Assembly (NCBI GenBank): GCA_051874735.1 | Contig: JBJEGD010000004.1 | Span: forward strand, 32,001-96,000 | Length of the DNA: 64,000 bases | Direction: 5' to 3' | Origin: Candidatus Bruticola sp. | GTDB lineage: Bacteria; Vulcanimicrobiota; Xenobia; Xenobiales; Xenobiaceae | In this document: piece after piece, positions 3,664 to 18,542 of the stretch | Layout: each line of letters starts with the position of its first letter | Position numbering within the stretch: the first letter of the stretch is position 1 | Notes under the pieces: model-generated | Database searches by the model: none | What the model saw: only the letters and a program-made list of their open reading frames with translations | Told to the model about the DNA's origin: nothing | Position numbers and translations under genes: made by a program

Positions 3664-4452
3664 TTACTTAACTATATAAGCTTTTTTGATCATGGTGGGC
3701 TGCTGCTTGGCGGGCAGACTCTTCAAGTAGGCTTCACCATTGTACCAAAGCATACCTTGATCGAGTCCCATATCTGGGCTTCCAACAGACTTAAACGAAT
3801 CCGCAACCTCCATACCTTTGACTACCTTACCGAAGGTACTGAAATTCTGCTGCTGCAGGAAATCGTTATCCCCATAATTTATGAAAATTTGAGTGGAATT
3901 TGTGTTGGGGCCAGCTTTAGCGAAAGCCAAAGTGCCGCGGTCTAAGCGGAAAAGACTAGGATCATCATTAAAGTTCTTATCTTTCCAGTCGATCATGCCT
4001 TTGCGCCAGTTGATACCAAATTGGGCTACAAATGGGCGGGGGTTCTTAACTACACGGAATATAGGGGTATCGTTGTAGTAGCCGAGTTTTACTAATTCGA
4101 TAAAGCGTTTGGCTGCGTTAGGAGCCGCTTGGGGATAGATTTCCATGTCGATATCCCCGTCAGTAGTTTCAAAGCGCACTAAAGTGTACTCAGTAATAGT
4201 GGGGGCCTCGGGACCGAAAGGAGTTAAAGAACGATATTGAGCTGACATTGGGCTCTCCTTTTCTTGACTTTGCTGAGCGGCAGGTTCGGAAGCTGACTGC
4301 TCGGCAGGTTTATTTTCTTGGGGTTGAACTTGCTGGCTCTGTGCCTGGGATGCCCCTCTTTCTGCTGCTGTTTCTTGAGTTTTAGCGCAGCCAAACTGCA
4401 AACTAGCAAAAATAAGCACCGCAGCTAAGGTAGACAGGCGATATATATTCAT
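3664..4452 (-). CDS. Cyclophilin-type peptidyl-prolyl isomerase, probable lipoprotein
   Basis: Motifs FRVV..FVAQFG, AFAKAGPNTNSTQIFIN and FGKVVKG; signal peptide ending LQFGC followed by a Q/E/P-rich linker. Confidence 0.9.
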   Translation of the reverse strand: MNIYRLSTLAAVLIFASLQFGCAKTQETAAERGASQAQSQQVQPQENKPAEQSASEPAAQQSQEKESPMSAQYRSLTPFGPEAPTITEYTLVRFETTDGDIDMEIYPQAAPNAAKRFIELVKLGYYNDTPIFRVVKNPRPFVAQFGINWRKGMIDWKDKNFNDDPSLFRLDRGTLAFAKAGPNTNSTQIFINYGDNDFLQQQNFSTFGKVVKGMEVADSFKSVGSPDMGLDQGMLWYNGEAYLKSLPAKQQPTMIKKAYIVK

Positions 4453-4506
4453 TTTTTTTCTCCTGAAAAGAGACTCGGCACTGCTGAGTCTCTTAGATAA
4501 ATATTC

Positions 4507-5262
4507 TTAATCTTTAACTACTTCGGCTTTAATAATCATGGTAGGCTGCTGACTAGCAGGCAACTGCTTGAGGTAAGCGTCTCCGTTGGTAGAGAGCATA
4601 CGTTGGTTCAATCCCATACTAGGATCGCCCACTTGCTTAAAGTTATTGGCTATATCTAAACCTTTGGTAATAATACCGAAAGTAGAGAAAACTTGATCGC
4701 GTAAGAAGTCGTTGTTGGCATAATTAATAAAAACTTGAGTAGAGTTTGTATTAGGGCCGGCTTTAGCAAATGCTAAGGTTCCCGCTTCTAAGTGAAAGAG
4801 GCTGGGATCATCATTAAACTTTTTTTCATTCCATTGACGCTGGCCGTCTCTCCAATTTAATCCAAATTGGGCTACGAAGGGACGCGGATTTTTAACGACA
4901 CGGAAAATCGGAGTATTGTCGTAATAGCCGGCTTTTACTAACTCAATAAAGCGTTTAGCAGCATTGGGAGCCGCCTGAGGGTATATTTCCATTTCAATAT
5001 CTCCGGCACTAGTTTTGAAGCGCACTTTAACTACTTCGGTAAGGGCCGGAGCATTAGAACTGAAAGGAACGAGATGCCTGTATTTGGAGGCGGCTTTAGT
5101 TTGGGCTTCCTGGTTATCTTGAGCTGCAACCTGTTTGTTTCTACCAGCTACGAGTTTGTACTCTGTTTGGGAGTCTTCATGGGCCCAAGCGGAAAGGCTG
5201 CAGCAGAGGCTACCAATCACAGTTAAGGAAACAACGAGGCCTTTAATTAAGTTTTTATTCAT
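4507..5262 (-). CDS. Cyclophilin-type peptidyl-prolyl isomerase, Sec-exported paralog
   Basis: Same cyclophilin motifs; start MNKNLIK at 5262 with a signal peptide ending AWA. Confidence 0.9.
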   Translation of the reverse strand: MNKNLIKGLVVSLTVIGSLCCSLSAWAHEDSQTEYKLVAGRNKQVAAQDNQEAQTKAASKYRHLVPFSSNAPALTEVVKVRFKTSAGDIEMEIYPQAAPNAAKRFIELVKAGYYDNTPIFRVVKNPRPFVAQFGLNWRDGQRQWNEKKFNDDPSLFHLEAGTLAFAKAGPNTNSTQVFINYANNDFLRDQVFSTFGIITKGLDIANNFKQVGDPSMGLNQRMLSTNGDAYLKQLPASQQPTMIIKAEVVKD

Positions 5263-5303
5263 AATGTCGTATTTTTGCCGTTCCTTTCTTTGTAGGAAAA
5301 TTG

Positions 5304-5963
5304 TTAGGGAGAGCCCGGTACGTTTTGAGCCGGCGCCATCTTCCATGCATCTTTGATGTGAGACATATCATTGAAAGAGACTAAGCTGGGAAGTCCATTT
5401 ATATAGCGCAGACGAACGATTCCAGTGTTGCCTAATTCCATAGTCCACTGATATTTGCCTTGAGGGGGGCCTACAATATTCCATAGTATAGTTCTAATAA
5501 TTCCGCCGTGGCTGAAGGCAATTACCCGTCCGTCTTTGGGCAAATCATGTATCCAGGATTCAGCTCTGTCAGAAACATCCTGTAAATTTTCATCTGAGCC
5601 CGGAAAGTAAGTTCTATAAGGATCTTTCCACCAAGCTGTGACTTTGGCCTGATCTTCTGTGGAAAGCTCATTCCAGGTATGACCTTCTACTATACCCATG
5701 GGAATTTCTCGCAGGCGTTTGTCTAGGCGTATATCTTCTAATTTCAAATGGGGCATGGCCAACTGAGCTGTTTCAATACATCGGTGCAGATCTGAGCTCC
5801 AAACCTGGGTAAAATTAACATCTTTTAAATTATTAGCTAAAGCTCTAGCCTGCTCTTTGCCCAATTCGTTTAAACGTACATCGCTGTGTCCTTGCCAGCG
5901 TCTTACAGCATTCCAATCGGTACTGCCGTGGCGTACTAACCAAACTTCCAACATGAGCGCCAT
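5304..5963 (-). CDS. Histidine phosphatase (phosphoglycerate mutase/CobC family)
   Basis: LVRHGSTDWN, SSDLHRC, LREI and SHGG motifs. Confidence 0.9.
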   Translation of the reverse strand: MALMLEVWLVRHGSTDWNAVRRWQGHSDVRLNELGKEQARALANNLKDVNFTQVWSSDLHRCIETAQLAMPHLKLEDIRLDKRLREIPMGIVEGHTWNELSTEDQAKVTAWWKDPYRTYFPGSDENLQDVSDRAESWIHDLPKDGRVIAFSHGGIIRTILWNIVGPPQGKYQWTMELGNTGIVRLRYINGLPSLVSFNDMSHIKDAWKMAPAQNVPGSP

Positions 5964-6226
5964 GTTTTGCTGCTTTATTCGTCAATCCTGCTTATGAGAT
6001 TCATCTTGGATTTGGACTCATTTAGGCTCGTTTCCAGTTTATTTTTTAGACAATTATTATTTTCTTTTTTATTTATTTATCTTAAATCTATTTATTAAGA
6101 AATCCGAATTTTAGGCCACTATTTATGTATAGATAAGTTCTTTTTTCTCTTTGATAATTATCAATAAGTACAAGTGTAAAAAGTTAGTTTTTTTATAACT
6201 TGAGGATGATTAGGAGGGTAGATGCT

Positions 6227-9151
6227 GTGTCTTTAGAGCAAATATCTAATTTTTTGGGTATTTCCAATATATCTAGTAATTTAGTATCTTTTTCTACTGC
6301 TGCTTCCAGCAACTCTTTAGGGATAACTTGTAACGATTCTATTTCTTTTTCTGGCTCTGAAATTTTAGGGACTATGGAAAAAAGCCATGTTGCTTCTTTA
6401 GATGATGAAGAGGCCGCTGTTCAAGAAAATGAAGAATCTGGGGAAGCTGAGGAAGAAGCCGCGGTCTCCTCTGCGGAAGATACTCAGATTAGTGAAGTAG
6501 CGGCCTCTGAAAATGAAGATATGTCAGTTGAAGAAGCGGACAATCCTCAGAATGCTGTTGTTCAGATGGGTGAAGAAGTGGTTGCTAACGATGTCGCGGC
6601 TTCTAAAGTAGCTGCTTCGCAGACTTTAGCTCAGGTTGAAGCTGAGCAAAAAGCTGAGCTCGCTTCCAGCGCTAATTCCGAGGTCGATGAAGCTAATGCA
6701 AATTTAGAGGCTGCGCAAAATGAACTTGAAGAAGTTTTGGCTGAAGGTGAGATTGAAGGCAAAGAAGCTAATACGGCTGAGACGCTCGAAGGGTTAGAAG
6801 CTGAAATGGAAGAGCTCCAGGCAGAGCAAGAAAAGAAAGCTGAAGAGCGCGAAGCTTTAGAGCAGAAACAGGCCCAGCTGGTTGAAGATTTAGCTGAAGC
6901 GCAGGCTGATGGAGATCAGGAAAAAATTGAACAACTCAGTCAGGAGCTTAATCAGGTAAATCAAGATTTAACCAGATGCCAAGATGATTTGAGCTCTTTA
7001 CAAAATCAAATTTCGAATTTAAGTGGAACAATTGATTCAACTAAGAATCAGCTTGAACAAGAAAATGCGGCTAAGGAGCAGTTGCAGCAAGATAAGGTAA
7101 ATGCAGCTCAGAGCGCTCAGCAAAGCGCTGCCTCTAGTGTCGAACAGGCTCAAGCAGAAGCTGATAGTGCTAATGCCAATTATCAGAGTGCTCAGCAGCA
7201 GGCATCGCAAGCTAGTCAAGATGCTTTAGAAGCCAATTCGACCGCTCAAAGTTCTCAGAGCGAAGCTTCTAAAGCAGCAGATGAGGCTCAACAATCTCAA
7301 GCTAAAGCTGATGAGGTTAAGAGTTCATTGGAAGAGCTCCGTTCTGCTGCTGAGCAAGCTCGTGCTGACGCTTCTGCTAAAGCTGAAGAAGCCAGTCAGG
7401 CGGATTCGGAGGTTTCGTCTGCTCAATCTGCTTTAGAAGCCGCTCAGTCAGCTACCAAAACGATAGAAGATGAGGAAGGCAACACACAGGAAGTTCAAGA
7501 TGAGGAAGCTATTGCTTCAGCTCAAGCTGATTTGGAGGCCGCTCAATCTAAGGCTGAAGCTGCTCATGCTGCAGCTGATGAAGCGGAGAATACGGCCACT
7601 CAGTTAGAGAATATGCTTAGTCAGGCTGAGAGCAGTTCTGCTGCTGCCGATACAGAGTCTATTCAGGCTGAGGCTATCTCCGAACAAGCTGCCGCTCAGA
7701 CTGAGCAAGATGCCGCCGCCGTAGATAATGCTGAAAATGAAGCTGCCGCTGCCGATACAAAAGTTGAAGAGGCCGCTGGTCAAGCGAGTAATGCTGAGCA
7801 AAGTGTCAACCAGGCGTCCAACTTCTCTGATCAAGCTGAAAATGCTGTTGGCCAAGTTGAAGAAGATGCAAATACTGTGGCTGAAACTAATGAGGCCAAT
7901 CAAGCTGCTGCTGATAGCGCCCAAAATTCGGCAGATGAAGCTGAAAATAGTAGCAATGAACAGTCTGATAATGGAGTCAGTAATGAAGATATTCAGAATC
8001 AGCTCAATAGTTTAGCGCAGATGCTGGCCTCGATGCAGGCGGCTAATCAATCTAACGGTAGCAGCGGCAGTACTGGAGGTAGTGGAGGTTCTGGCAGTGT
8101 CGGTAGCACTGGAAGTACGGGCGGCACTGCCAGCACCAGCAGTACAGGTTCTACTTCCTCTACTAACAGAACTAGCGCTGCTGGTGGTCTCGATCTTTCC
8201 AAATGCTCCGATGAAGATATTGCTGCAGCTATAGATGGTTTCTTAGCAGAGAAAGGATCTGAAGCTCCTGAAGGTACTGGTCAACTTTTTGTTGAGGCTG
8301 GTAAAGAATACAATGTAGATCCTTTAATTTTGCTTTCTATTGCTGGTCAAGAAACTCAATGGGGTAAGACAGGTATAGGCCTTAACGGTTGGATGGGAGT
8401 TGGTGCTTACGATTCAAATCCTACTAATGCGACTACTAACCCTACTTTTGCTGGAGTTAAAAATCAAATTGAAGTAGGCGCCAAAACTTTTGCTAATTTG
8501 CGCGAAAAAGGCGGCTCTTCTTCTGAAGACTCAGTCGCCGATCAGACTGCTGCTGTGAATCAAGCCGGATGGGCTACTGATCAAAACTGGCACAATGGAG
8601 TGACTAGTATTTACGAAAATCAAGTTAGCGCCTACATGCTTGAACACTTAGAAGGAGCCGAAGTTAAAGGCAATAGCGAGGGTATTGAAGCTGCACTTAA
8701 TGAAGCTCTTTCTATGGAAGGGATGACTGAAAGTGCCAATGCCTCCGAAATTAATGCCATTACTAAGGATTGTAACCAAAGTTGGGCTCTCGATTGTCAG
8801 TCTCAACCTTGGTGCGCCGCTTTTGCCACAGGCATTTTAGCTAAAAATGGCGTTATGGACTTCAGCAACTGTGAAAATGTCAATTACACTCCCACTTTAG
8901 TTGAATGGTCTAAGAGTGAAGGCACTTGGAATAGTGCCGGTGGCGATTATATACCTCAGTCCGGCGATATGATTATGTTTGACTGGGATAATACCCGATC
9001 GGGGGCGGATCACGTGGGAATAGTAGTTAGCTACGACAGTTCTACTGGAGTGGTTACAACCGTTGAAGGCAACAGCAGTAATTCAGTAAAGGTTAACACT
9101 TATGACCGCAACCAGGCTTGTGTGATGGGTTATATATCTCCCAATAAATAA
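6227..9151 (+). CDS. Coiled-coil peptidoglycan hydrolase 1 (GH73-like glucosaminidase + CHAP)
   Basis: DPLILLSIAGQETQWG, GAYDS, WATDQNW (GH73-like); PWCAAF, GDMIMFDW, DHVGIV, VEGNS (CHAP). GTG 6227 follows GGAGGG and aligns with the paralog 2 start. Confidence 0.85.
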   Translation: MSLEQISNFLGISNISSNLVSFSTAASSNSLGITCNDSISFSGSEILGTMEKSHVASLDDEEAAVQENEESGEAEEEAAVSSAEDTQISEVAASENEDMSVEEADNPQNAVVQMGEEVVANDVAASKVAASQTLAQVEAEQKAELASSANSEVDEANANLEAAQNELEEVLAEGEIEGKEANTAETLEGLEAEMEELQAEQEKKAEEREALEQKQAQLVEDLAEAQADGDQEKIEQLSQELNQVNQDLTRCQDDLSSLQNQISNLSGTIDSTKNQLEQENAAKEQLQQDKVNAAQSAQQSAASSVEQAQAEADSANANYQSAQQQASQASQDALEANSTAQSSQSEASKAADEAQQSQAKADEVKSSLEELRSAAEQARADASAKAEEASQADSEVSSAQSALEAAQSATKTIEDEEGNTQEVQDEEAIASAQADLEAAQSKAEAAHAAADEAENTATQLENMLSQAESSSAAADTESIQAEAISEQAAAQTEQDAAAVDNAENEAAAADTKVEEAAGQASNAEQSVNQASNFSDQAENAVGQVEEDANTVAETNEANQAAADSAQNSADEAENSSNEQSDNGVSNEDIQNQLNSLAQMLASMQAANQSNGSSGSTGGSGGSGSVGSTGSTGGTASTSSTGSTSSTNRTSAAGGLDLSKCSDEDIAAAIDGFLAEKGSEAPEGTGQLFVEAGKEYNVDPLILLSIAGQETQWGKTGIGLNGWMGVGAYDSNPTNATTNPTFAGVKNQIEVGAKTFANLREKGGSSSEDSVADQTAAVNQAGWATDQNWHNGVTSIYENQVSAYMLEHLEGAEVKGNSEGIEAALNEALSMEGMTESANASEINAITKDCNQSWALDCQSQPWCAAFATGILAKNGVMDFSNCENVNYTPTLVEWSKSEGTWNSAGGDYIPQSGDMIMFDWDNTRSGADHVGIVVSYDSSTGVVTTVEGNSSNSVKVNTYDRNQACVMGYISPNK

Positions 9152-9190
9152 AACAATTATTCAGTAAGTATATTCTGCTGAATCGTTTGC

Positions 9191-9228
9191 AACAGCCTTT
9201 CGCTGATTATCAGCCTAGGGCTGTTTTT
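9191..9228 (+). terminator. Intrinsic terminator after hydrolase 1
   Basis: AACAGCC...GGCTGTT stem followed by a T tract. Confidence 0.65.
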
Positions 9229-9493
9229 ATATTTGACTATAAAAATATCTCTTAAATAAAGATATTTATTAACTTATATGTATCTAAAATGTCATATATA
9301 TAACAATTTCTTTTAATGATTAAATGAATTATAAATGCTTTATTTATGTTAAATAAATGTTAAAACAGTCCAAAAAAGTACTTTTAAGTATTGATAAAAA
9401 AGTATTTATATATGATAAATAAAATAAATGTGGAGCAGATTTATGTGTGGTTTCGCCAGCTTTTTTCTGCTGAAAATAGGGGAGATTTGAGGA

Positions 9494-12400
9494 ATGTCAT
9501 TAGATAAAATTTCCGGCTTTTTCGGAATAAGCAATATATCCGGTAATACTTTGGGTACTTCCGCTACTTCCAGTGGAGCTTTTGGCTTTGCTGCCGATGA
9601 TTCTATTTCTCTTTCCGGTTCTGAGGCCATCAATGCTTTCGGTTCCAGCTATGTCGCTTCTTTGGAAGAGGGTGGAGCCCTTGAAGGTGAAGCAGCCGCT
9701 GCAGAGCAGGCTACTCAGGCTAACGAGCAAACTGCTCAAGTAGCTGCTAATGAAAATGAAGACCAAAATATAGTTAAGGCTGAAGCTGACGCCACTGCTA
9801 AAAATGCTGCTGCTACTGATGCCTCAGCTGTGCAGAATAAAGCTCAGGCAGAGGCTGTTGAACAGGCTCAGGCAGCTGTTTCCGCTAACGCGGAAGTCGA
9901 TGAAGCTGACGCCGACTTAGAGGCGGCTCAGCGCGAGCTAGATAATGTTATCGCTGAAGGCGATCAAGAGGGCAAAGAGGCCAATACTGCTGAAACTTTA
10001 AACAGTTTAGAAACTGAAATGGAGCGTCTTAAGGCTGAGCAAGAAAAGAAGGCTCAAGAGCGTGAAGCTCTGGAGTTGAAGCAGGCTCAATTGGTTGAAG
10101 ATCTGGCTGAAGCTCAGGCTGACGGCGATCAGGAAAAGGTCGCTCAGCTCAGTCAGGAACTGAATCAAGTTAATCAGCAGCTGAGTTCTACCCAAGATGA
10201 AATGGGCTCTTTACAGAACCGCATTTCTAGTTTAGGTGATACTATCGACTCCACCAGAACGCAGCTTGAACAAGAAAATGCTGCTAAAGCTCAGAATCAG
10301 CAAGATAAAGTGAATGCAGCCCAGAGCGCTCAACAGAATGCTGCCGCCAGTGCTGATCAGGCTAGAGCTAATGCCAGCAGCGCCAATGCCGATTCTCAAT
10401 CTGCTCAGCAAGCGGCTTCCGAGGCTGGTAGCACCGCTTCTCAAGCTAGTTCCGAGGCTCAATCTTCTCAGGCCGACGCTTCTAAGGCTGCTGCTGAAGC
10501 TCAGCAGTCTCAATCTAAAGCTGATGAAGCCAAGGCTGCTATGGAACAGCTTAAGTCTGAAGCTACCCAAGCTCGCAACGATGCTACTTCCAAAGCCGCT
10601 GAAGCTAGTCAGGCCGATTCTGAAGTCGCTGCTGCTCAGTCTGCTTTAGAAGCTGCTCAGTCCGCTACTAAAACTATAGAAGATTCAGAGGGCAATACTC
10701 AGGAAGTTCCCGATGAAGAAGCTATCGCTTCTGCTCAGTCCGCTTTAGATGCCGCTCAAGCTAAAGCAGATGCTGCTCACGCTGCTGCCGATCAGGCTGA
10801 AGCTGAGGCTTCCAGACTTGAAGGACAACTTGGCGCTGCTGAAGGTAAATCTGCTGCTGCCGATACTGAAGCTACTCAAGCTAACAAGGCTTCCGAACAG
10901 GCTGAGGCTCAAGCTACTTCCGATGCTGCTGCCTCTGAGAACGCTGAGAAGGCAGCTGCTGAGGCTGACACTAAGGCTGAAAATGCCGCTGGTCAGGTCA
11001 ATAGTGCTGAGCAAAAAGTGTCTAAAGCTGAGAGCAGTGTAGAGCAAATTAATGATAAGGCCGGTAAAGCTCAAGAAGATGTCAGCACTGTAGAGGCTGC
11101 CAATGCTGCCGATCAAGCTGCTGCTGATAATGCTAAGAATGCCGCCGATGATGCCAGAAACAGCGCTAATCAGAATGGCAAAGAAGCTTCTCAAATTAAG
11201 CCTGAAGATCTTCCCGAGGGTGTTTTTGTAGATAAAAACGGAACTCTCTATAGCGAAGATGGCAAGAAACTTCCTGACGGTAGTACTCTTAACGAAGATG
11301 GCGAGTTAGTTAATGGCGACGGTCACCTTATTGATAACAAAGGCAATCTTATCAATGAAGATGGGGCCAGAGTAGACGCCAATGGCAAAGTCATGACTCC
11401 TGAAGAGATCGCTAATTCGGATAAGGCAAAAGAGTCAGGAAAGACTGCAGAAGAGTCTAAGAGTGAATCGTCAAAGGAAACGGGCAATAATGAGTTGCTC
11501 AATCAAATTCAACAACTTCAACAGCAGTTGGGTAATTTAGCCGCTGCTCAGCAAGCTGCCGGCAATAACGGTGGCGGTTCCGGTTCCGGCGGTGGTTCTG
11601 GCTCCGGTTCCGGTGGCGGTTCTGGAACTGGTGGCGTCTCTGGTGCTGGCGGATCTGGTAGCGCTGGAAACGTAACTTCAGGCTCTTCTGTGAAGAGAAG
11701 CAGTGCAGCTGGCGACATCGATATCTCTAATTGCTCCGACGAAGACGTCGCTAAAGCTATTGATGGTTTCTTAGCTGAAAAAGGTTCAGCTGCTCCCGAA
11801 GGTACTGGCGCCCTCTTTGTGAAGGCTGGTAAGGAATACGATGTAGATCCGCTGGTGCTGCTCTCCATCGCTGGCCAGGAAACTCAGTGGGGCAAGACAG
11901 GCATCGGTATCAACGGTTGGATGGGAGTAGGCGCTTACGATTCCGATCCTAATAACGCTACCAGAAACTCTAAGTTCTCCGGTGTAGAGAATCAGATAAA
12001 TGTAGGAGCCAAAACTTTCCATAATCTGCGCGAAAAGGGCGGCTCTTCTTCGTCCGACTCTATAGCAGATCAGGCTGCTGCTGTAAATAAAGCCGGTTGG
12101 GCTACCGATCAGAATTGGCACAATGGCGTTACTAGTATCTACCACGATCAGGTAGGCGCTTACATGCTCGAGAATTTGAAGGGCGCAGAGGTTAAAGGCA
12201 ATGGTAAGGGCATTGAAGGAGCGCTCAACGAAGCCTTGTCTATGGAAGGTCTCACAGAGCACGCTAATGCCTCTGAAATAAATGCTATTACCAAAGATTG
12301 CAACCAGAGCTGGGCTCTTGACTGTCAATCGCAGCCTTGGTGTGCCGCTTTCGCTACGGGTATTTTGGCTAAACACGGCGTTATGGACTTCAGCGCTTGT

Positions 12401-12679
12401 GAGAACGTCAACTATACTCCTACATTGGTAAATTGGTCTAAAGGACAAGGTACTTGGAATGCCGCTGGCGGTGATTATGTTCCTCAGTCCGGCGATATGA
12501 TTATGTTTGACTGGGACAACACCAGATCGGGAGCCGATCATGTAGGTATCGTAGTTAGCTACGACAGCTCCAGCGGGGTTGTTACAACTGTTGAAGGCAA
12601 TAGCAGCGATTCAGTAAAAGTAAAGACTTACGATCGCAATCAGGCCTGCGTTATGGGCTATATATCCCCCAACATCTAA
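9494..12679 (+). CDS. Coiled-coil peptidoglycan hydrolase 2 (GH73-like + CHAP)
   Basis: Full-length paralog of 6227..9151 with the same catalytic motifs and an extra DxxG-repeat insert. Confidence 0.85.
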   Translation: MSLDKISGFFGISNISGNTLGTSATSSGAFGFAADDSISLSGSEAINAFGSSYVASLEEGGALEGEAAAAEQATQANEQTAQVAANENEDQNIVKAEADATAKNAAATDASAVQNKAQAEAVEQAQAAVSANAEVDEADADLEAAQRELDNVIAEGDQEGKEANTAETLNSLETEMERLKAEQEKKAQEREALELKQAQLVEDLAEAQADGDQEKVAQLSQELNQVNQQLSSTQDEMGSLQNRISSLGDTIDSTRTQLEQENAAKAQNQQDKVNAAQSAQQNAAASADQARANASSANADSQSAQQAASEAGSTASQASSEAQSSQADASKAAAEAQQSQSKADEAKAAMEQLKSEATQARNDATSKAAEASQADSEVAAAQSALEAAQSATKTIEDSEGNTQEVPDEEAIASAQSALDAAQAKADAAHAAADQAEAEASRLEGQLGAAEGKSAAADTEATQANKASEQAEAQATSDAAASENAEKAAAEADTKAENAAGQVNSAEQKVSKAESSVEQINDKAGKAQEDVSTVEAANAADQAAADNAKNAADDARNSANQNGKEASQIKPEDLPEGVFVDKNGTLYSEDGKKLPDGSTLNEDGELVNGDGHLIDNKGNLINEDGARVDANGKVMTPEEIANSDKAKESGKTAEESKSESSKETGNNELLNQIQQLQQQLGNLAAAQQAAGNNGGGSGSGGGSGSGSGGGSGTGGVSGAGGSGSAGNVTSGSSVKRSSAAGDIDISNCSDEDVAKAIDGFLAEKGSAAPEGTGALFVKAGKEYDVDPLVLLSIAGQETQWGKTGIGINGWMGVGAYDSDPNNATRNSKFSGVENQINVGAKTFHNLREKGGSSSSDSIADQAAAVNKAGWATDQNWHNGVTSIYHDQVGAYMLENLKGAEVKGNGKGIEGALNEALSMEGLTEHANASEINAITKDCNQSWALDCQSQPWCAAFATGILAKHGVMDFSACENVNYTPTLVNWSKGQGTWNAAGGDYVPQSGDMIMFDWDNTRSGADHVGIVVSYDSSSGVVTTVEGNSSDSVKVKTYDRNQACVMGYISPNI

Positions 12680-12703
12680 TATCTAGGCCTTAACATAATA
12701 CCT

Positions 12704-12743
12704 AAATGCCCTTCCTGTTTTTGAACTGGAAGGGCATTTTTTT
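12704..12743 (+). terminator. Intrinsic terminator after hydrolase 2
   Basis: AAATGCCCTTCC / GGAAGGGCATTT plus T tract. Confidence 0.8.
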
Positions 12744-12953
12744 AGGATTATATAAAATTATTATCCATTTTTTTTGTTCAGTTTCAGAGTTGTTAACTAT
12801 TGTAAATGTGTCATAAGGGAAAAATAAAAAGTAAAAAAAATGTTAAAACGATAAATAAATTATAGATAAAAATAAAAAAGTTCTTGATAATACAAAAAAC
12901 ATTGTCCAAGTTGGAGTTAGTCCTTGGGCTGATTGTTTAGGAGGGATTTTTAC

Positions 12954-15269
12954 ATGACGCAAGTTAGCACCAATAATTACGATAATTCTGCTGCCATACA
13001 GCAGCAACAGCAAGCTGAAGCTGCCCGACGCCAAGAAGAAGCTCGCAAAGCTAGAGAGGCCGAACAGGCAAAAAGAGCTGAAGAAGCTCGTAAGGCTCAA
13101 GAAGAACAGGCCAGAAAGGCCAGAGAGCAAGATCAGGTTGCTGTAAGCTATAGCGAAGCGGCTGAAGCTGGCAAAAATGTTAAAGTGGCCTCTCTCGATG
13201 ATGATGAGCGCTCTACTGTCGATAAGAACGGTTTCGGTGGTGGAGGCGGCAAATTCTTAGGAAAAACAGAAGAAAAGGGAGTGCTCGGCAAGATTACCGG
13301 TGCCATTGACGGTATTACAGATAAAGTTGGGGAAATTACTGGCAAGATAGTAGATGCCGTAAAAGATAAGTTCGCCGACGGTCTTGATGTCGCTTCTGAA
13401 ATAGCCGATAAAGTTGGTTTAGAAGGCACATCTGACGACTTAGAAAAGATTGCTGACGACCTTAGAGGTGAGGACGGCGAAAAGCTTGACGACGAACAGA
13501 AGGCCGAAGTAAAGGACAAGATCAGAGAGCAAAAGCTCGAGAAGCTCAATAAAGAGAAAGACATTCAAACTAAGAAGCAGGAAGAGCTGGAAAAAGAGCG
13601 CGACAAGACTATGGAAGAGCTTGAGGCAGCCCAGGCCGCTGGTGATCAGGCTAAGGTTAAAGAGCTTACTAACAAGCTCGACGGCATTAACGATGAACTC
13701 TCTGCTGTAAACGATAAGATTGATAAGATCAATAAAGAAATTGAAAGCTTAGAGCCTACCCCTGAAGAAGAGCTCGAAGATCTCCAGAAAGACATGGATG
13801 AGCTTAATAAGGAAGAAGAGGCTAAGCTCAAAGAGAAAGAGGAGCTGGAAAAACAGCAGGAAGAGCTGGTTGAAGAACTGGCTGCTGCTCAGGCTGCTGG
13901 AGATCAAGAAAAGGTTGAGGAGCTTACTAATAAGCTGCAGGGAGTCAATGACGACTTGGAGCGCGTCAATGGTGAACTGCAAGATATTCAGAACAAGAAA
14001 CAGCTTCTCCAGAATGATATCGATAAGGTTCAAGGTGAAATTGACGCTAAAAACGCTCCCCAGCAGGCAGCAGCCGAAGGTGGAGATGGTTCTCAGGCGG
14101 TTAGTTCCAACGAAGCTGCTGGAGCCCAGGGCGCTAACAATGGTACCCAGGGAGCCAACAATGGCGGCTCCGGAGGCAGCGGTGGTTCCGGCAATAATGG
14201 CGGTGTAAACGGCACTGGTGGTACCGGTGGCACCGGAGGAACTGGAAGCACTGGTGCTACTCAGGGAGCTAATGCTTCTGGTGCAACCAGAACAAGTGCA
14301 GCTGGCGACATCGATCTTTCTAAGTGCTCCGATGAAGATATCGCTAAAGCTATCGATGGTTTCTTGGCTTCTAAAGGTTCTGCTGCTCCTGAGGGAACTG
14401 GTGCCATGTTCGTCAAAGCTGGCAAAGAGAATAATGTCGATCCGTTAGTTCTGCTCTCCATAGCTGGTCAAGAAACTCAGTGGGGCAAGACTGGTATCGG
14501 CATCAACGGTTGGATGGGTGTAGGAGCTTATGACTCTGATCCTAATAACGCTACCAGAAATTCTAAGTTCTCTGGCGTAGAGAATCAAATCAACGTCGGC
14601 GCTAAAACTTTTGCCAATCTCCGTGCTAAAGGCGGATCCTCGGCCGATGCTTCTATCGCAGATCAAGCTGCAGCCGTCAATAAAGCTGGTTGGGCTACTG
14701 ACCAAAATTGGCACAAAGGTGTAACTAGTATTTATCACGATCAAGTCGGTGCTTATATGCTCGAGAATTTGAAGGGCGCCGAAGTTAAGGGCAGCAAGGG
14801 CGTCGATGGGGCCCTCACTGAGGCTGGCTCTATGGTCGGCATGACTGAGAGTGGTAACTCTTCGCAGATTAATGCTATTACCAAAGATTGGAATCAGAGC
14901 TGGGCTCTTGATTGTCGAGAACAGCCTTGGTGTGCTGCTTTCGCCACCGGTATTTTAGCTAAACATGGAGTTATGGACTTTAGTGCCTGCTCCAATGTAA
15001 ACTACACTCCTACTTTGGTAGAATGGTCTAAGGGTCAAAATACCTGGCAGCAGGGCGGTAACGGCTACGCTCCTAAGTCAGGCGATATGATTATGTTTGA
15101 CTGGGACAACACCCGCAGCAGTGCTGATCACGTTGGTATTGTAGAGAGCTACGATCCAGCTAGCGGTACGGTAACAACGATTGAGGGCAACAGCAGTAAT
15201 TCGGTGCGTCGTCGCACTTATAATGTTAACGATGCCTGTATTATGGGCTTCATAATGCCGAACAAGTAA
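12954..15269 (+). CDS. Coiled-coil peptidoglycan hydrolase 3 (GH73-like + CHAP)
   Basis: Same C-terminal catalytic pair with a divergent E/K-rich N-terminus; ATG 12954 follows AGGAGGG. Confidence 0.85.
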   Translation: MTQVSTNNYDNSAAIQQQQQAEAARRQEEARKAREAEQAKRAEEARKAQEEQARKAREQDQVAVSYSEAAEAGKNVKVASLDDDERSTVDKNGFGGGGGKFLGKTEEKGVLGKITGAIDGITDKVGEITGKIVDAVKDKFADGLDVASEIADKVGLEGTSDDLEKIADDLRGEDGEKLDDEQKAEVKDKIREQKLEKLNKEKDIQTKKQEELEKERDKTMEELEAAQAAGDQAKVKELTNKLDGINDELSAVNDKIDKINKEIESLEPTPEEELEDLQKDMDELNKEEEAKLKEKEELEKQQEELVEELAAAQAAGDQEKVEELTNKLQGVNDDLERVNGELQDIQNKKQLLQNDIDKVQGEIDAKNAPQQAAAEGGDGSQAVSSNEAAGAQGANNGTQGANNGGSGGSGGSGNNGGVNGTGGTGGTGGTGSTGATQGANASGATRTSAAGDIDLSKCSDEDIAKAIDGFLASKGSAAPEGTGAMFVKAGKENNVDPLVLLSIAGQETQWGKTGIGINGWMGVGAYDSDPNNATRNSKFSGVENQINVGAKTFANLRAKGGSSADASIADQAAAVNKAGWATDQNWHKGVTSIYHDQVGAYMLENLKGAEVKGSKGVDGALTEAGSMVGMTESGNSSQINAITKDWNQSWALDCREQPWCAAFATGILAKHGVMDFSACSNVNYTPTLVEWSKGQNTWQQGGNGYAPKSGDMIMFDWDNTRSSADHVGIVESYDPASGTVTTIEGNSSNSVRRRTYNVNDACIMGFIMPNK

Positions 15270-15316
15270 GTATAATAGTAAGTATCTGTTAAATATCGTT
15301 AGTTATATTAAATAAT

Positions 15317-15362
15317 AAAGGACAGGTGGACTGTAATGCGTTGCCTGTCCTTTGGCTTTTTT
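15317..15362 (+). terminator. Probable terminator after hydrolase 3
   Basis: AAAGGACAGG / CCTGTCCTTT stem with downstream Ts. Confidence 0.6.
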
Positions 15363-15482
15363 ATGGCTATAAAAAAATGCTTTATCATATTTCTGTTTTG
15401 AGTTATAATCAAAAGTAGAATGGGCTGCTCATGTGCAGTTTCGCCCATCAGATTCTCCCTCCAGGGGTTCAGGAGGAACTTA

Positions 15483-18400
15483 ATGGATTCGTACAATTCC
15501 CTTGCTTGCAGCAAGGGGAGCAGACGCTGGCTGGGCTTATGCCTATTTGCTATAGCCTTCCTGTTTGCTGCCCTAGTTTCTGGCTGCGGCGGTTCCGGTA
15601 GCTCCGGCAGCGGCGGTGGTGCTCCTGCCAAAGAGTATTCCGATGTTATTTTCCATTTTAACAATTTGGCCAGTGAAAAAGTTTTGGCCCGTGCCGTACC
15701 TGAAAACACTGCGTTTGTTCGCTTTACAGGTTCGAGCAGCTCTCGTGAAGTTCTTTATGGTCCTGTCATCAAGGATTACGCTGCTACCATTATTTTAGAG
15801 AAAGTTCCCGTTAAAGTATCCGGCTTTGTTTTAGAGTGCCTTAACTCTGAGAAGCAACTTACTGCAGTTATTCCTGTTTCTGTACAGATGAACTGCTACG
15901 GTGATACAGTCGTTAATATTAACGATTACAAGCCTCTGAGCAGTGTAGTAAAAAATATCACTGTTAAACCTACAGAAATTAACGATTTGTTAGTTGGATA
16001 CAGTGAGAGTATCAGTGCCATAGCTACTTTGAGCGATGGTCAGATAGTCGATCTCACTCCTTACATGACTTTTACCAGTTCTGATCCTGAAGTTGCTACT
16101 GTAGAGCAGAACGGATATGATGGTGCTAAGGTCACAGCTAGTAAGGGCGGAGAAACCACTATCTCCGGTAGCGTTTTAGGCGTCTCTATGCCTGACATCA
16201 GCGTCTCTGTAAGCGTTGGTGTAGTTGAGAGTAAAGTCATCTTCGAACCTGAATCATTGAGTGTTGCTCCTAGCAGAACCAGACCCGCTTCTGCTTTAGT
16301 CGTTTTCAATGATGGAACAACTAAGGCTTTAGATCCCAGTCAGGTTACATACAGTGTCGCTCCAGAAGGTGTTGTAACGATTGAGCCTTCTACTTCTTAT
16401 CCTTCCCAAGTCTACGTTACTGGTAGTACTGGCGCTCAGGTAGGTGATACCGCTACTGTCACCATGACCGCTTCTTTAAGTGGCAAAACTTTCACCGCTG
16501 ATTTGCCTGTGACTATTAGTGATGCCGTTATAGACAGCATTGAAATTTCCAATGTTATCGAGCATGAGTTCGCTCCCGGCGAGAATAAAATCTTCAGTAA
16601 AGGCACTCCCAGTGAGAGTCAGTTTACTGCTACTGCCCATATGAGCGACAGCACTTCACAAAATGTAACTTCTCAGGTTACTTGGAAGAGCAATACTCCC
16701 AATGTTGCTAGTTTCTCCGATGATACGGCTGGTTTACTGCAGGCTAAAGAGTCTGGTGTTACTACTGTTACTGCCGAACTCGATGGCATTACTTCCAATT
16801 CTATTACAATTACCGTAGTAGAGCCTAGTGTTACCGAGTTGAAGGTTGAAGGCATTGCCGATGCTAACAGCGGTATCGTGGTGTTTCTCGGTGAGAATCC
16901 CGTGGCTTATCCTTTGAAGGTTAAAGCCGTTTACGACAACACTGATGAAGTTTATGTAAATATCTCTGACGGTTTGGTTTGTGAGCACATTACCAACGGC
17001 AGTGTGCTTTCTGAAGAGTACGTAAAGTTCGAAGATAAAGAAGAAGCTGAGACAGAAACTCATTACATTGAAGTTTCTGGTATCAGAGCTACTTCCGATT
17101 TAACTTCCAGCCAAATGAAATTTACCTACAACGAAGTTTCTTCTGATCTGATTAAAGTTACAGTTCAAGAAAAAGCTGTAACCGACTTTACTATCAGTTT
17201 CAAAGATCAGACTACAGGTAAAGAATACTCCGTAGACACTTACAATGAAAATACTGTTCTTGGTGTTCCCTGGGGCCGCAAATATGATGTCATAGTTAGA
17301 GGCTATTGGACCAATCCCAATACTGGTGAACATGAGTCTTTGGGTGAAATTACCGGTAATTATAAGTATGGTTATCAGGATGGTAATACCGTAGCTAATC
17401 AGGGTACTTATAATAATCTGGAATACACCAGCACCGATTTGGATCATCCTATAATTTTTGACGACGTAAAGCTGGATAAGTATGGCGTATATTGGTCTGA
17501 GTCTGGCACGACTATCGAGACTATTGAAGAGCAATTCAGTGATAGTTTATTTACTAGCGAAGCTACCCGCGGTGAATGCAGTTATACTGGTACTGGCGGT
17601 ACCATCACTGTTGTCGGTGTAGATAAAACTAATGATAAAGAGACCTTCCGTGTTTGCTTCCGCATTGTAAAGCCGGCGATCGACTCTTATATGGCTATGA
17701 GCTACGGAGATATATCTCGCCAGGGTGATCTTTCTACTTTCGATGTGCCTCGCGGTGTTAACTTTGACATTACTGATGGCAGTTTTAGCCATAGGCTTGT
17801 GGCTGTTATGTCTAATCTTGGTGAAGAAGGCAGAGAGCACGCAACAAAAGACGTTACTGAATTCGTTAATGTTGATGACAACAGCATTACCGATTTCGAT
17901 ACTAAACTCTTAACTGCCAAAGTCAGCGACAATGTGTACTCTAGCGTTACCGCTGATGCACAGTACGCTGAGCGCAACCTGTTCAATACGGAAGATCGCC
18001 GTTTCGATATGACAGGCGTAGTACTCATCAATGATTGGGACAAAGAAGACCACTTGTTCGGGGCTTACTCTACTCCTGCGGAAACCGAATGGCAGAGCTT
18101 TAACTGCGAGATGCCTGAGTTTACGCTGCGTTTGGAGCGTCCTAGAATTACTAACTCTTTCGCTATCGTTTACAGCTATGGTGATGCTGGTGAGATAGCT
18201 AAAGTCGACATCGGCGCTGATAACTACTATCACTTCAAAGAAGGTGACAAGTTTACTTATTGCTTGAGAGAAGCTACGCTCAGTGATGGTTCTGAAGCTG
18301 GTTCATCCGACTTTATTATCCAAACTGATTCCAAGATTAGTGGTTTCAGCAATAATGGTACGCCAGTCTTTATTTTGAAGCATATTGGCAATGCCGCTTC

Positions 18401-18542
18401 AGCTGATCCTTATGAAGTAATTACTGATGAGACTTTTGCTAACGGCTTTAAGTCAACTATTAGCATTACTCCTAATAACGACACTTACTATGATGCCGTT
18501 CTTTATTCCAATACTATGACTGTCTTCTTGGACAAGCCCTAG
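15483..18542 (+). CDS. Large lipoprotein with several bacterial Ig-like (Big_2-type) domains
   Basis: Lipobox VSGC followed by a G/S linker; Big_2 signatures FTSSDPEVATV and VTWKSNTPNVASF; ATG follows AGGAGG. Confidence 0.75.
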   Translation: MDSYNSLACSKGSRRWLGLCLFAIAFLFAALVSGCGGSGSSGSGGGAPAKEYSDVIFHFNNLASEKVLARAVPENTAFVRFTGSSSSREVLYGPVIKDYAATIILEKVPVKVSGFVLECLNSEKQLTAVIPVSVQMNCYGDTVVNINDYKPLSSVVKNITVKPTEINDLLVGYSESISAIATLSDGQIVDLTPYMTFTSSDPEVATVEQNGYDGAKVTASKGGETTISGSVLGVSMPDISVSVSVGVVESKVIFEPESLSVAPSRTRPASALVVFNDGTTKALDPSQVTYSVAPEGVVTIEPSTSYPSQVYVTGSTGAQVGDTATVTMTASLSGKTFTADLPVTISDAVIDSIEISNVIEHEFAPGENKIFSKGTPSESQFTATAHMSDSTSQNVTSQVTWKSNTPNVASFSDDTAGLLQAKESGVTTVTAELDGITSNSITITVVEPSVTELKVEGIADANSGIVVFLGENPVAYPLKVKAVYDNTDEVYVNISDGLVCEHITNGSVLSEEYVKFEDKEEAETETHYIEVSGIRATSDLTSSQMKFTYNEVSSDLIKVTVQEKAVTDFTISFKDQTTGKEYSVDTYNENTVLGVPWGRKYDVIVRGYWTNPNTGEHESLGEITGNYKYGYQDGNTVANQGTYNNLEYTSTDLDHPIIFDDVKLDKYGVYWSESGTTIETIEEQFSDSLFTSEATRGECSYTGTGGTITVVGVDKTNDKETFRVCFRIVKPAIDSYMAMSYGDISRQGDLSTFDVPRGVNFDITDGSFSHRLVAVMSNLGEEGREHATKDVTEFVNVDDNSITDFDTKLLTAKVSDNVYSSVTADAQYAERNLFNTEDRRFDMTGVVLINDWDKEDHLFGAYSTPAETEWQSFNCEMPEFTLRLERPRITNSFAIVYSYGDAGEIAKVDIGADNYYHFKEGDKFTYCLREATLSDGSEAGSSDFIIQTDSKISGFSNNGTPVFILKHIGNAASADPYEVITDETFANGFKSTISITPNNDTYYDAVLYSNTMTVFLDKP

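Follow-up and report, generated by a model that had tools for sequence, protein, structure and literature searches.

Glycoside hydrolases of family 73 (GH73) cut the glycan backbone of peptidoglycan and CHAP domains cut its peptide stem, and enzymes of either kind need to leave the cytoplasm to reach the wall. In diderm bacteria, peptidoglycan hydrolases are expected to carry a Sec or Tat signal or to be served by a known secretion system. Here we analyze a lineage-specific family that does neither, starting from three tandem genes (H1, H2 and H3) in a stretch of 64,000 nucleotides from Candidatus Bruticola sp. (contig JBJEGD010000004.1, positions 32,001 to 96,000; the whole of this stretch is called the window). 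The family runs from short single-domain forms in free-living relatives to multi-enzyme forms of 770-2040 residues in gut-associated ones. An earlier reading of the letters alone (the sequence-only reading) had taken the three genes for candidate antibacterial or predation effectors that may be secreted in one step by a type III or flagellar-type system to lyse other bacteria.

Several described systems resemble these proteins in part. With the GH73 autolysins LytB (which has a signal peptide and choline-binding repeats), AtlE, SagB and Acp, H1-H3 have the fold, the aligned catalytic Glu and the W/Y-A-T-D motif in common, whereas identity stays below ~25%, a CHAP domain, a long stalk and a leader are added, and both a signal and a wall-binding module are missing. 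The order of N-terminal coiled coil, linker and C-terminal CHAP, NlpC/P60 or M23 domain is seen in PcsB (Streptococcus pneumoniae), CwlO (Bacillus subtilis) and EnvC (Escherichia coli); these are Sec-exported and have an adjacent or dedicated FtsEX, whereas H1-H3 are signal-less, with stalks 3-4 times longer and an additional catalytic domain. In beta- and gamma-proteobacteria, the flagellar type III system exports FlgJ, a protein that lacks a signal, begins with a disordered part and has its GH73 domain toward the C-terminal end. H1-H3 are like it in lacking a signal, in their disordered N-terminal part and in the position of GH73, but they have no Rod-binding domain (PF10135), lie outside flagellar loci and carry CHAP.

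Polymorphic toxins join a constant N-terminal part to variable cargo and occur in tandem, copy-variable arrays, as does this family (with GH73, one to four CHAP domains, RTX repeats or Peptidase_M91 as cargo). Unlike in those toxins, the leader matches no trafficking domain, the heads are conserved within the genus, and no immunity genes adjoin the array in the genome of the window (G000, a 92.4% complete metagenome-assembled genome; labels of families, genera and genomes are coded handles throughout). Staphylococcal phage virion hydrolases combine the same two activities on one polypeptide, though with the domain order reversed, whereas the present locus is chromosomal and free of phage genes. 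A parallel in terms of export is Lysobacter enzymogenes OH11, a diderm without flagellin that keeps the flagellar export core, as is the case here: its flagellin-less flagellar type III secretion system is reported to be needed for the secretion of lytic enzymes that act against other microbes (dependence was seen with fliI and flhB mutants), the cargo being a protease, a glucanase and a HAD-family protein and not stalked wall hydrolases (PMC7688988).

The array consists of three separate paralogs, in agreement with the sequence-only reading. Genes and catalytic domains are located in the window as follows (cut-offs are 30.2 bits for PF01832 and 26 bits for PF05257):

6227..9151, + strand: H1, 974 amino acids (leader, acidic helical stalk, Gly/Ser linker, GH73, CHAP)
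8282..8620, + strand: GH73 domain of H1 (PF01832, 33.1 bits; residues 695-807 of the 983-residue reading that starts at 6200)
8801..9073, + strand: CHAP domain of H1 (PF05257, 35.6 bits; residues 868-958 of the same 983-residue reading)
9494..12679, + strand: H2, 1061 amino acids (plan as in H1, plus an extra beta-repeat insert)
11813..12145, + strand: GH73 domain of H2 (PF01832, 34.3 bits)
12329..12601, + strand: CHAP domain of H2 (PF05257, 35.4 bits)
12954..15269, + strand: H3, 771 amino acids, ATG start (N-terminus unlike that of H1 and H2, an Arg/Lys/Glu-rich helix)
14406..14738, + strand: GH73 domain of H3 (PF01832, 32.0 bits; catalytic Glu is residue 507, at 14472-14474)
14811..15251, + strand: CHAP-like domain of H3 (Cys660 at 14931-14933, His726 at 15129-15131)

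That each protein combines a GH73-like and a CHAP domain with intact Cys and His, as had been read from the letters, is borne out. PF01832 scores above its cut-off in all three and PF05257 in H1 and H2; the CHAP domain of H3 has no Pfam match at E<=0.1 and is assigned by homology, given its match to the PHROG endolysin family phrog_21357 (5.8e-17), a C-terminus 77-82% identical to those of H1 and H2, its conserved Cys and His and a TIGR02594 score below the cut-off. PHROG endolysin families match the catalytic domains of the array proteins more generally (in H1 also part of the stalk and linker). With scores of 32.9-34.2 bits against a curated cut-off of 70.55 (32.9 for H3), the proteins are by their sequences related to the TIGR02594 family but not members of it. 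The catalytic residues are conserved well beyond the array: the GH73 Glu (within an E-[ST]-x-x-G segment) is present in 78 of 82 aligned family rows; among rows with a CHAP domain, its Cys is kept in 33 of 34 and its His in 34 of 35, and the family likewise conserves the W/Y-A-T-D motif. The nearest solved sequence to the GH73 domain of H2 is S. pneumoniae LytB (E 2e-4), in which the residue altered in the E585Q mutant (7pj4) aligns with the catalytic Glu.

Structure prediction gives the same picture. An AlphaFold2 model of H3 residues 300-771, built from an 84-row family alignment, has a mean predicted local distance difference test score (pLDDT) of 83.9. In it, a helical hairpin is followed by a disordered linker of 75 residues rich in Gly and by GH73 and CHAP domains modelled with confidence, the CHAP domain with pLDDT >90 over most of its length and high values up to the last block. 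Foldseek matches of this model include CHAP and NlpC/P60 structures (the LysK CHAP domain, phi812 CHAP, CwlO and also PcsB) as well as the GH73 structures of AtlE, LytB and SagB. Moreover, the catalytic part is under strong purifying selection: for the C-terminal 332 residues the ratio of nonsynonymous to synonymous substitution rates (dN/dS) is 0.03-0.08 among the paralogs, and 0.02-0.04 when they are compared with orthologs from two further species. The enzymatic identity of H1-H3 can thus be regarded as secure at the level of sequence.

Such enzymes would normally carry an export signal, and here none is evident. Over the first 70 windows of 19 residues, the Kyte-Doolittle mean peaks at 0.90 in H1, 0.61 in H2 and 0.18 in H3, and earlier in-frame starts lengthen H1 and H3 by at most nine and seven residues, respectively, neither extension being hydrophobic. 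Judged by the hydropathy of their N-termini, H1-H3 have no Sec, Tat or lipoprotein signal, alternative starts included, as the sequence-only reading had stated. In the same genome, by contrast, the neighbouring cyclophilins and an EnvC-like protein have plain Sec or lipoprotein signals. Among the inspected full-length family members P0020 alone has a hydrophobic stretch.

In place of a signal peptide the proteins begin with a leader of about 60 residues that is conserved across genera (in H3 it is partial). It is marked by three motifs: an N-terminal D-K-I-S ... G-I-S, then D-D-S-[IV]-S-L-S-G, and V-A-S-L-[DE]-[DE]. An AlphaFold2 model of H2 residues 1-735 (13 rows, mean pLDDT 72.7) predicts the leader (residues 1-67) to be disordered, with pLDDT <40, and to be followed by stalk helices of up to 178 residues, for which pLDDT is mostly 82-96 but about 47-65 across residues 490-570. 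The parts of H2 that precede the catalytic domains are:

9494..9679, + strand: leader, ~62 amino acids (alignments of 12 and 17 leader sequences)
9695..11563, + strand: helical stalk (AlphaFold2 helices at residues 68-159, 164-210, 213-390, 408-560 and 636-690)
11201..11398, + strand: insert found in H2 and not in H1 or H3 (residues 570-635, about nine 7-residue beta repeats, pLDDT 84-91)
11564..11728, + strand: Gly/Ser linker (23 Gly in residues 701-800; disordered, pLDDT <40)

Together with these helices, charge and glycine counts agree with the long acidic helical stalk and Gly/Ser linker described before: the net charge of the stalk per 100 residues ranges from -8 to -24 in H1 and H2 and from -2 to -17 in H3, and the linker windows of H1-H3 contain 19-26 Gly per 100 residues. 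The stalk has a dN/dS of 0.05 against the closest ortholog. In H3, the N-terminal helix is followed by two copies of a helical-hairpin motif (turn A-Q-A-x-G-D), the Gly-rich linker, GH73 and CHAP. At the turn of the two longest helices of the H2 stalk lies a beta-hairpin tip (residues 392-406, window 10667-10711), in which G400, V405 and D407 hardly vary across the family alignment; such a conserved tip where two long antiparallel helices meet may mark a docking site. The beta-repeat insert of H2 has no Pfam family at its cut-off and, going by its predicted structure, may serve as a binding module.

A profile of the leader was searched against 1.84 billion representatives and gave six matches, of which four are genuine leader carriers; another, P0078, was judged to be a repeat from its 11 matched stretches alone. 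No usable match was obtained in the ESM Atlas with H2 residues 1-110. The metagenomic protein P0076 (797 residues) has leader and stalk, with Asn at the position of the GH73 Glu (read by eye), and a C-terminal part that contains Cys and His and has no Pfam match. A 171-residue open reading frame (ORF) beside flgB in G000 (L009:7474-7989, minus strand, contig C42) matches the leader weakly (E 0.023), with a D-N-V-S-L-S motif and no Pfam family. The short D-x-[IV]-x-L-S motif of the leader recalls FlgM. Nonetheless, the leader was rejected as a FlgM-like element: Pfam gave no match, and the FlgM search reached only 14.7 bits elsewhere in G000 and 11.5 bits within the hairpin of H2, scores at which 11 of 14 control genomes also matched. 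The helical hairpin of one short relative matches DUF6435 in Pfam (E 2.6e-6), which offers no functional lead.

Comparison with other genomes shows a modular family, variable in copy number and expanded in gut-associated Xenobiaceae as far as their gene content tells. All compared genomes are metagenome-assembled, so that 'not found' does not mean absent, and ORFs of the relatives were called by our own scripts with provisional start codons. Both domains occur in one frame only in three genera (g1, g3 and g4) of the family of the window (f1), whereas free-living relatives with genomes of 6-9 Mb have GH73 and CHAP on separate ORFs of 270-460 residues. Two short GH73 proteins (289 and 326 residues) have no signal, a disordered N-terminus and a Gly-rich linker; the longer of the two also has one copy of the helical-hairpin motif. 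Among ~5.8 billion clustered proteins the named matches all belong to this phylum, bar a few that are vaguely or oddly labelled, and the H3 ortholog P0001 is annotated in its source as 'CHAP domain-containing protein [Candidatus Bruticola sp.]'. Literature searches returned no work on these proteins and none on the cell biology of Ca. Bruticola.

Orthologous arrays are present in all nine other genomes of the genus of the window. The same locus, from the phosphatase and cyclophilins to a Big_2 lipoprotein, is found in G028, G031 and G033 (g1) and in G038 (g4), while G039 (g4) retains the lipoprotein side until the contig ends and G034 (g1) the cyclophilin side only. The number of array copies differs: three in G028, three plus a fragment in G033, four in G031, two in G034 and two in G038 (one of 2040 residues), whereas in G039 a GH73-only form adjoins an ORF with two CHAP domains and SLT, close to the contig end and with its start not established. 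Since the paralogs differ by dS >1.5, the duplications within the array are old.

G037 has 12 family matches. On its contig C26, two giant proteins begin with a related leader and stalk. In the one of 1988 residues (L071:72-6038), Pfam recognizes four CHAP domains, RTX repeats and a C-terminal Peptidase_M91, and a GH73 match is given by tblastn and motif; its neighbour of 1284 residues (L071:6325-10179) has 16 RTX repeats and Peptidase_M91. Peptidase_M91 is the NleD-type 'effector' family. Other loci of G037 encode a 3-CHAP protein and two proteins of ~890 residues with one CHAP each. Two paralogous ORFs of 146 and 125 residues with signal peptides lie 3' of the latter pair (L076:9502-9942 and L076:10122-10499, contig C46); they have no Pfam family and are possible immunity or partner proteins. 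In G000 itself a fourth, CHAP-only paralog of 359 residues is found on contig C22 (87687-88766, minus strand; L011:3687-4766), signal-less, with a Met/Ser/Gly/Asn-rich N-terminus and present in seven of the nine other genus genomes among the matches listed.

Ca. Bruticola belongs to the class Xenobia within the phylum Vulcanimicrobiota. The organism is a diderm, as had been supposed: the window holds an AcrAB-TolC-type pump (TolC-like and HlyD-family genes within a resistance-nodulation-division (RND) pump), and the only cultured member of the phylum is reported to have a typical Gram-negative envelope (PMC9758169). Of the export genes proposed for a search, those of a flagellar-type type III core were found in G000, at C42:8600-27471 and C26:82600-87600. 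The core comprises FlgB, FlgC, FliE, FliF, FliG, FliH, FliI, FliJ, FliK, a hook-like protein, FliM, two FliN, FliO, FliP, FliR, FlhA and FlhB with its NPTH site; a second locus adds a FliK-like protein, two rod proteins, a Rod-binding-only FlgJ (106 residues, beside flgG) and a sigma-28-like factor. Between fliJ and fliK, an SLT lytic transglycosylase of 207 residues without a signal peptide is encoded (L009:16294-16917, contig C42), which by its position is presumably exported by the type III core. SecY and two secretins are also present in G000.

Other systems gave less. A screen for type I secretion systems (T1SS) yielded six ABC candidates in G000, two of them exporters and neither beside a membrane-fusion gene, so no T1SS operon emerged; the screen was limited (motif prefilter, ORFs of at least 480 residues, a 92% complete genome) and is not proof of absence. 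Effectors of the Tae/Tge type of type VI secretion were rejected as an explanation, as the sheath protein VipB was not found in the 92.4% complete G000 and the gaps between the genes hold no immunity ORF: in line with the sequence-only reading, no ORF of at least 40 residues lies wholly inside the H1-H2 or the H2-H3 gap. Also rejected were LXG/WXG substrates of type VII secretion, because the genome has a single FtsK_SpoIIIE domain match and thereby no multi-FtsK ATPase of the EssC/EccC type.

Within the class, FHIPEP (the FlhA profile) is found in 44 of 44 genomes, against 10 of 44 for flagellin and 8 of 44 for FlgI (both 0 of 19 in f1). Most genomes with flagellin have FlgI and a second FlhA as well. 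The FlgI matches are mostly on contigs with a flagellin match, and several (for example in G005 and G014) have a second FlhA on the same contig. This co-occurrence points to a patchily distributed true flagellum beside a universal system that has neither filament nor rings.

Combining these results, we tentatively favour a reading in which H1-H3 are active two-headed murein hydrolases, GH73 acting on the glycan and CHAP, as a cysteine peptidase or amidase, on the peptide stem or cross-link, with both heads hung by the flexible Gly-rich tether from the long acidic helical stalk. The lineage-specific leader, standing in for a signal peptide, would drive Sec-independent export, most likely through the filament-less flagellar-type core. 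No other export system found here reads N-termini that are disordered and stay uncleaved. The conserved, disordered and seemingly uncleaved leader, the lack of another system for N-terminal signals and an SLT without a signal inside the fli operon single this core out as the best candidate, though its role is a reasonable guess and not a finding. To our knowledge no sequence rule defines flagellar type III export signals. The target would mainly be the walls of other bacteria, in particular gut monoderms with an exposed wall, whereas the outer membrane of the producer would shield its own wall, so that no immunity gene would be needed. An antagonistic role fits because leaders and stalks of the same kind carry effector-like cargo in relatives; copy-number changes, multi-enzyme giants and relatives with RTX or M91 look, by their architecture, like weaponry. 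As context only, the related family Ca. Eudoremicrobiaceae has been suspected of predation on other grounds (PMC9259500). In our estimate the reading as a whole, from leader-driven Sec-independent export to antibacterial wall hydrolysis, falls short of an even chance, and the outward role is rated somewhat above a self-directed one.

A number of observations weigh against it. The 332-residue C-terminus is matched in 42 of the 44 Xenobia genomes, a spread more to be expected of a core function than of an accessory weapon, and the near-universal short forms in the class look like housekeeping proteins. Neither a flagellin N or C domain nor FlgH or FlgI was found in G000, and since these last two form the L and P rings no path across the outer membrane is evident. 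H1-H3 are not adjacent to type III genes in G000, and in free-living relatives the neighbourhood varies. The leader finds nothing in Pfam at E<=10 (N-terminal 120 residues), and among all ORFs of G000 its profile matches H1, H2 and weakly H3 only, without revealing a set of co-substrates. Furthermore, the GH73 subfamily does not co-vary with FlhA: it is found in 46 of 251 phylum genomes (0 of 161 in family f15), against 236 of 251 (148 of 161) for FHIPEP. When six genomes flagged as unpublished are left out (G177, G212, G230, G232, G245 and G247) the counts are 46 and 230 of 245, respectively, assuming that both tallies drew on one sample; nothing else stated here depends on these six. As FlhA is almost universal in the phylum, however, this co-distribution cannot discriminate. 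Of the one-step secretion put forward earlier, the presence of the core thus stands, but a link with H1-H3 and the crossing of the outer membrane are unsupported; export into the periplasm is as likely as secretion in one step.

With periplasmic export, it might be argued that the enzymes remodel the wall of the producer itself. Released through the ring-less core or by another route, as FlgJ is in proteobacteria, they would act on the sacculus, opening or trimming it so that cells can separate or grow or an envelope-spanning machine can be inserted. We consider this rather unlikely, although it is the next most probable explanation. The near-universal spread of the family, with one or two short copies in free-living relatives, would be expected, as would the strong purifying selection on the catalytic part; the closest solved GH73 enzyme, LytB, acts in cell separation; with FlgH and FlgI not found, type III substrates would end in the periplasm; and the signal-less SLT of the fli operon fits as well. 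An immunity gene would not be required either, so the lack of such genes between H1, H2 and H3, which the sequence-only reading had accounted for by outward secretion, fits both roles equally well. On the other hand, the genes lie outside flagellar and division loci, a stalk of 500-700 residues would be much longer than the periplasm is wide, and several copies of 770-2040 residues, multi-CHAP forms and RTX/M91 fusions are unusual for housekeeping autolysins. In addition, a canonical Sec-dependent division module is already there. On contig C16 of G000, ftsE, ftsX (with FtsX_ECD) and a coiled-coil M23 protein of 390 residues form one operon, and the EnvC-like protein (P0081, CC_PcsB plus M23) has a classic signal peptide. 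Given this separate operon, H1-H3 are not ordinary division hydrolases, and the possibility raised earlier of common autolysins in division loci does not apply.

For the same reason it is very improbable that H1-H3 are division hydrolases of the PcsB/CwlO/EnvC type, switched by the grip of FtsEX on their coiled coil, even if the order of coiled coil, linker and cysteine peptidase is right, antiparallel helices with a conserved hairpin tip are predicted, and Foldseek does return PcsB, if far down its list (rank 27, probability 0.47). A coiled-coil M23 protein bearing a Sec signal is encoded right beside ftsEX as its partner, whereas H1-H3 have no signal peptide, are not near ftsEX (no FtsX gene is found near the array) and belong to a multi-copy, modular family. 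Less far-fetched, though still quite improbable, is the absence of any dedicated export: the proteins would build up in the cytoplasm and be released by partial cell lysis or in vesicles, as public goods against neighbours or for nutrients. The missing signal, a leader that belongs to no known family and the lack of adjacent holin or secretion genes would all be accounted for, but conservation of the leader across genera at the very N-terminus speaks for a machine that recognizes it, purifying selection among orthologs extends to the stalk, and no lysis cassette is nearby. Type I secretion, or another route that reads the C-terminus, ranks slightly lower still. H1-H3 are very acidic, large and without an N-terminal signal, like typical T1SS cargo, two family members of G037 have RTX repeats, and TolC-like and HlyD-family genes are found in the window (though as part of the RND pump). 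Nonetheless, Pfam finds no RTX repeats (PF00353) in H1-H3, their C-terminus is a folded CHAP domain and not a free secretion signal, neither ABC exporter of the limited screen has a membrane-fusion gene next to it, contig C26 of G037 showed no T1SS genes around the RTX proteins, and what the family has in common is the N-terminal leader, not the C-terminus. Finally, it is hardly credible that the array is a phage remnant (a tail-associated lysin or tape-measure-like protein). The PHROG endolysin matches and the CHAP-GH73 pair of the staphylococcal phage hydrolases would point that way, but the former fall on the catalytic domains (extending in H1 over some of the stalk and linker), the window has no phage genes, the chromosomal locus is conserved across two genera, and the duplicates are old and under purifying selection.

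If the leader is an export signal, it would represent either an undescribed route or a use of the filament-less flagellar core that has likewise not been described, and would give a handle on other cargo of that route. Lysis of neighbours, if true, would make H1-H3 candidate bacteriolysins of an uncultured gut member and hint at the lifestyle of small-genome Xenobia; with the producer's own wall as target, a new way of autolysin delivery would be at hand. A further-reaching idea, which we think unlikely, is that the filament- and ring-less type III machine of Xenobia, present in every examined genome, is now a protein exporter with the leader-stalk family as its dedicated cargo. In that case an uncultured gut phylum would possess a system that secretes wall-degrading effectors of the polymorphic kind, an independent parallel to the step from flagellum to injectisome.

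Paralogs of the FlhA cytoplasmic domain are a separate observation. In G000 a stand-alone copy of 491 residues is encoded on contig C22 (122510-123985; L012:14511-15986), covering positions 326-655 only of the FHIPEP profile. Each f1 genome has one, and some of the 6-9 Mb relatives have at least a dozen each; we know of no described function for them. In the neighbourhoods of short relatives, a GH73 gene lies ~2.4 kb from such a paralog in G010 and another is near a FliK-like gene in G015, but these cases were given no weight because such paralogs are so numerous.

As to the array itself, H1 starts with GTG, with an AGGAGGG ribosome-binding site 7 nt 5' of it. Each gene has its own terminator-like hairpin followed by a T-run, as described before:

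9191..9225, + strand: terminator hairpin 3' of H1 (-19.5 kcal/mol, fold z -5.6)
12704..12739, + strand: terminator hairpin 3' of H2 (-21 kcal/mol, fold z -7.4)
15316..15354, + strand: terminator hairpin 3' of H3 (-18.4 kcal/mol, fold z -3.0)

A consensus terminator scanner caught the H1 hairpin only, since the loops of the other two exceed its limit. Pfam scans of H1-H3 and their neighbours revealed no phage, holin or wall-binding domains, which agrees with the sequence-only reading. Neighbouring genes encode two cyclophilins, a histidine phosphatase, a BspA-type leucine-rich repeat protein and a Big_2 lipoprotein. The cyclophilins are tandem paralogs directly upstream of the array on the opposite strand (window 3664-5346), one with a lipoprotein-type and one with a Sec-type signal; the pair is syntenic with the array in G028, G031, G033 and G034, and G038 shows one of them before the contig stretch ends. 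Directly downstream, the Big_2 lipoprotein (1040 residues, window 15420-18542) occupies the same position in G028, G031, G033, G038 and G039. It evolves fast, with identities from 76% down to 31%, whereas its neighbour GGGtGRT stays at 90-98%.

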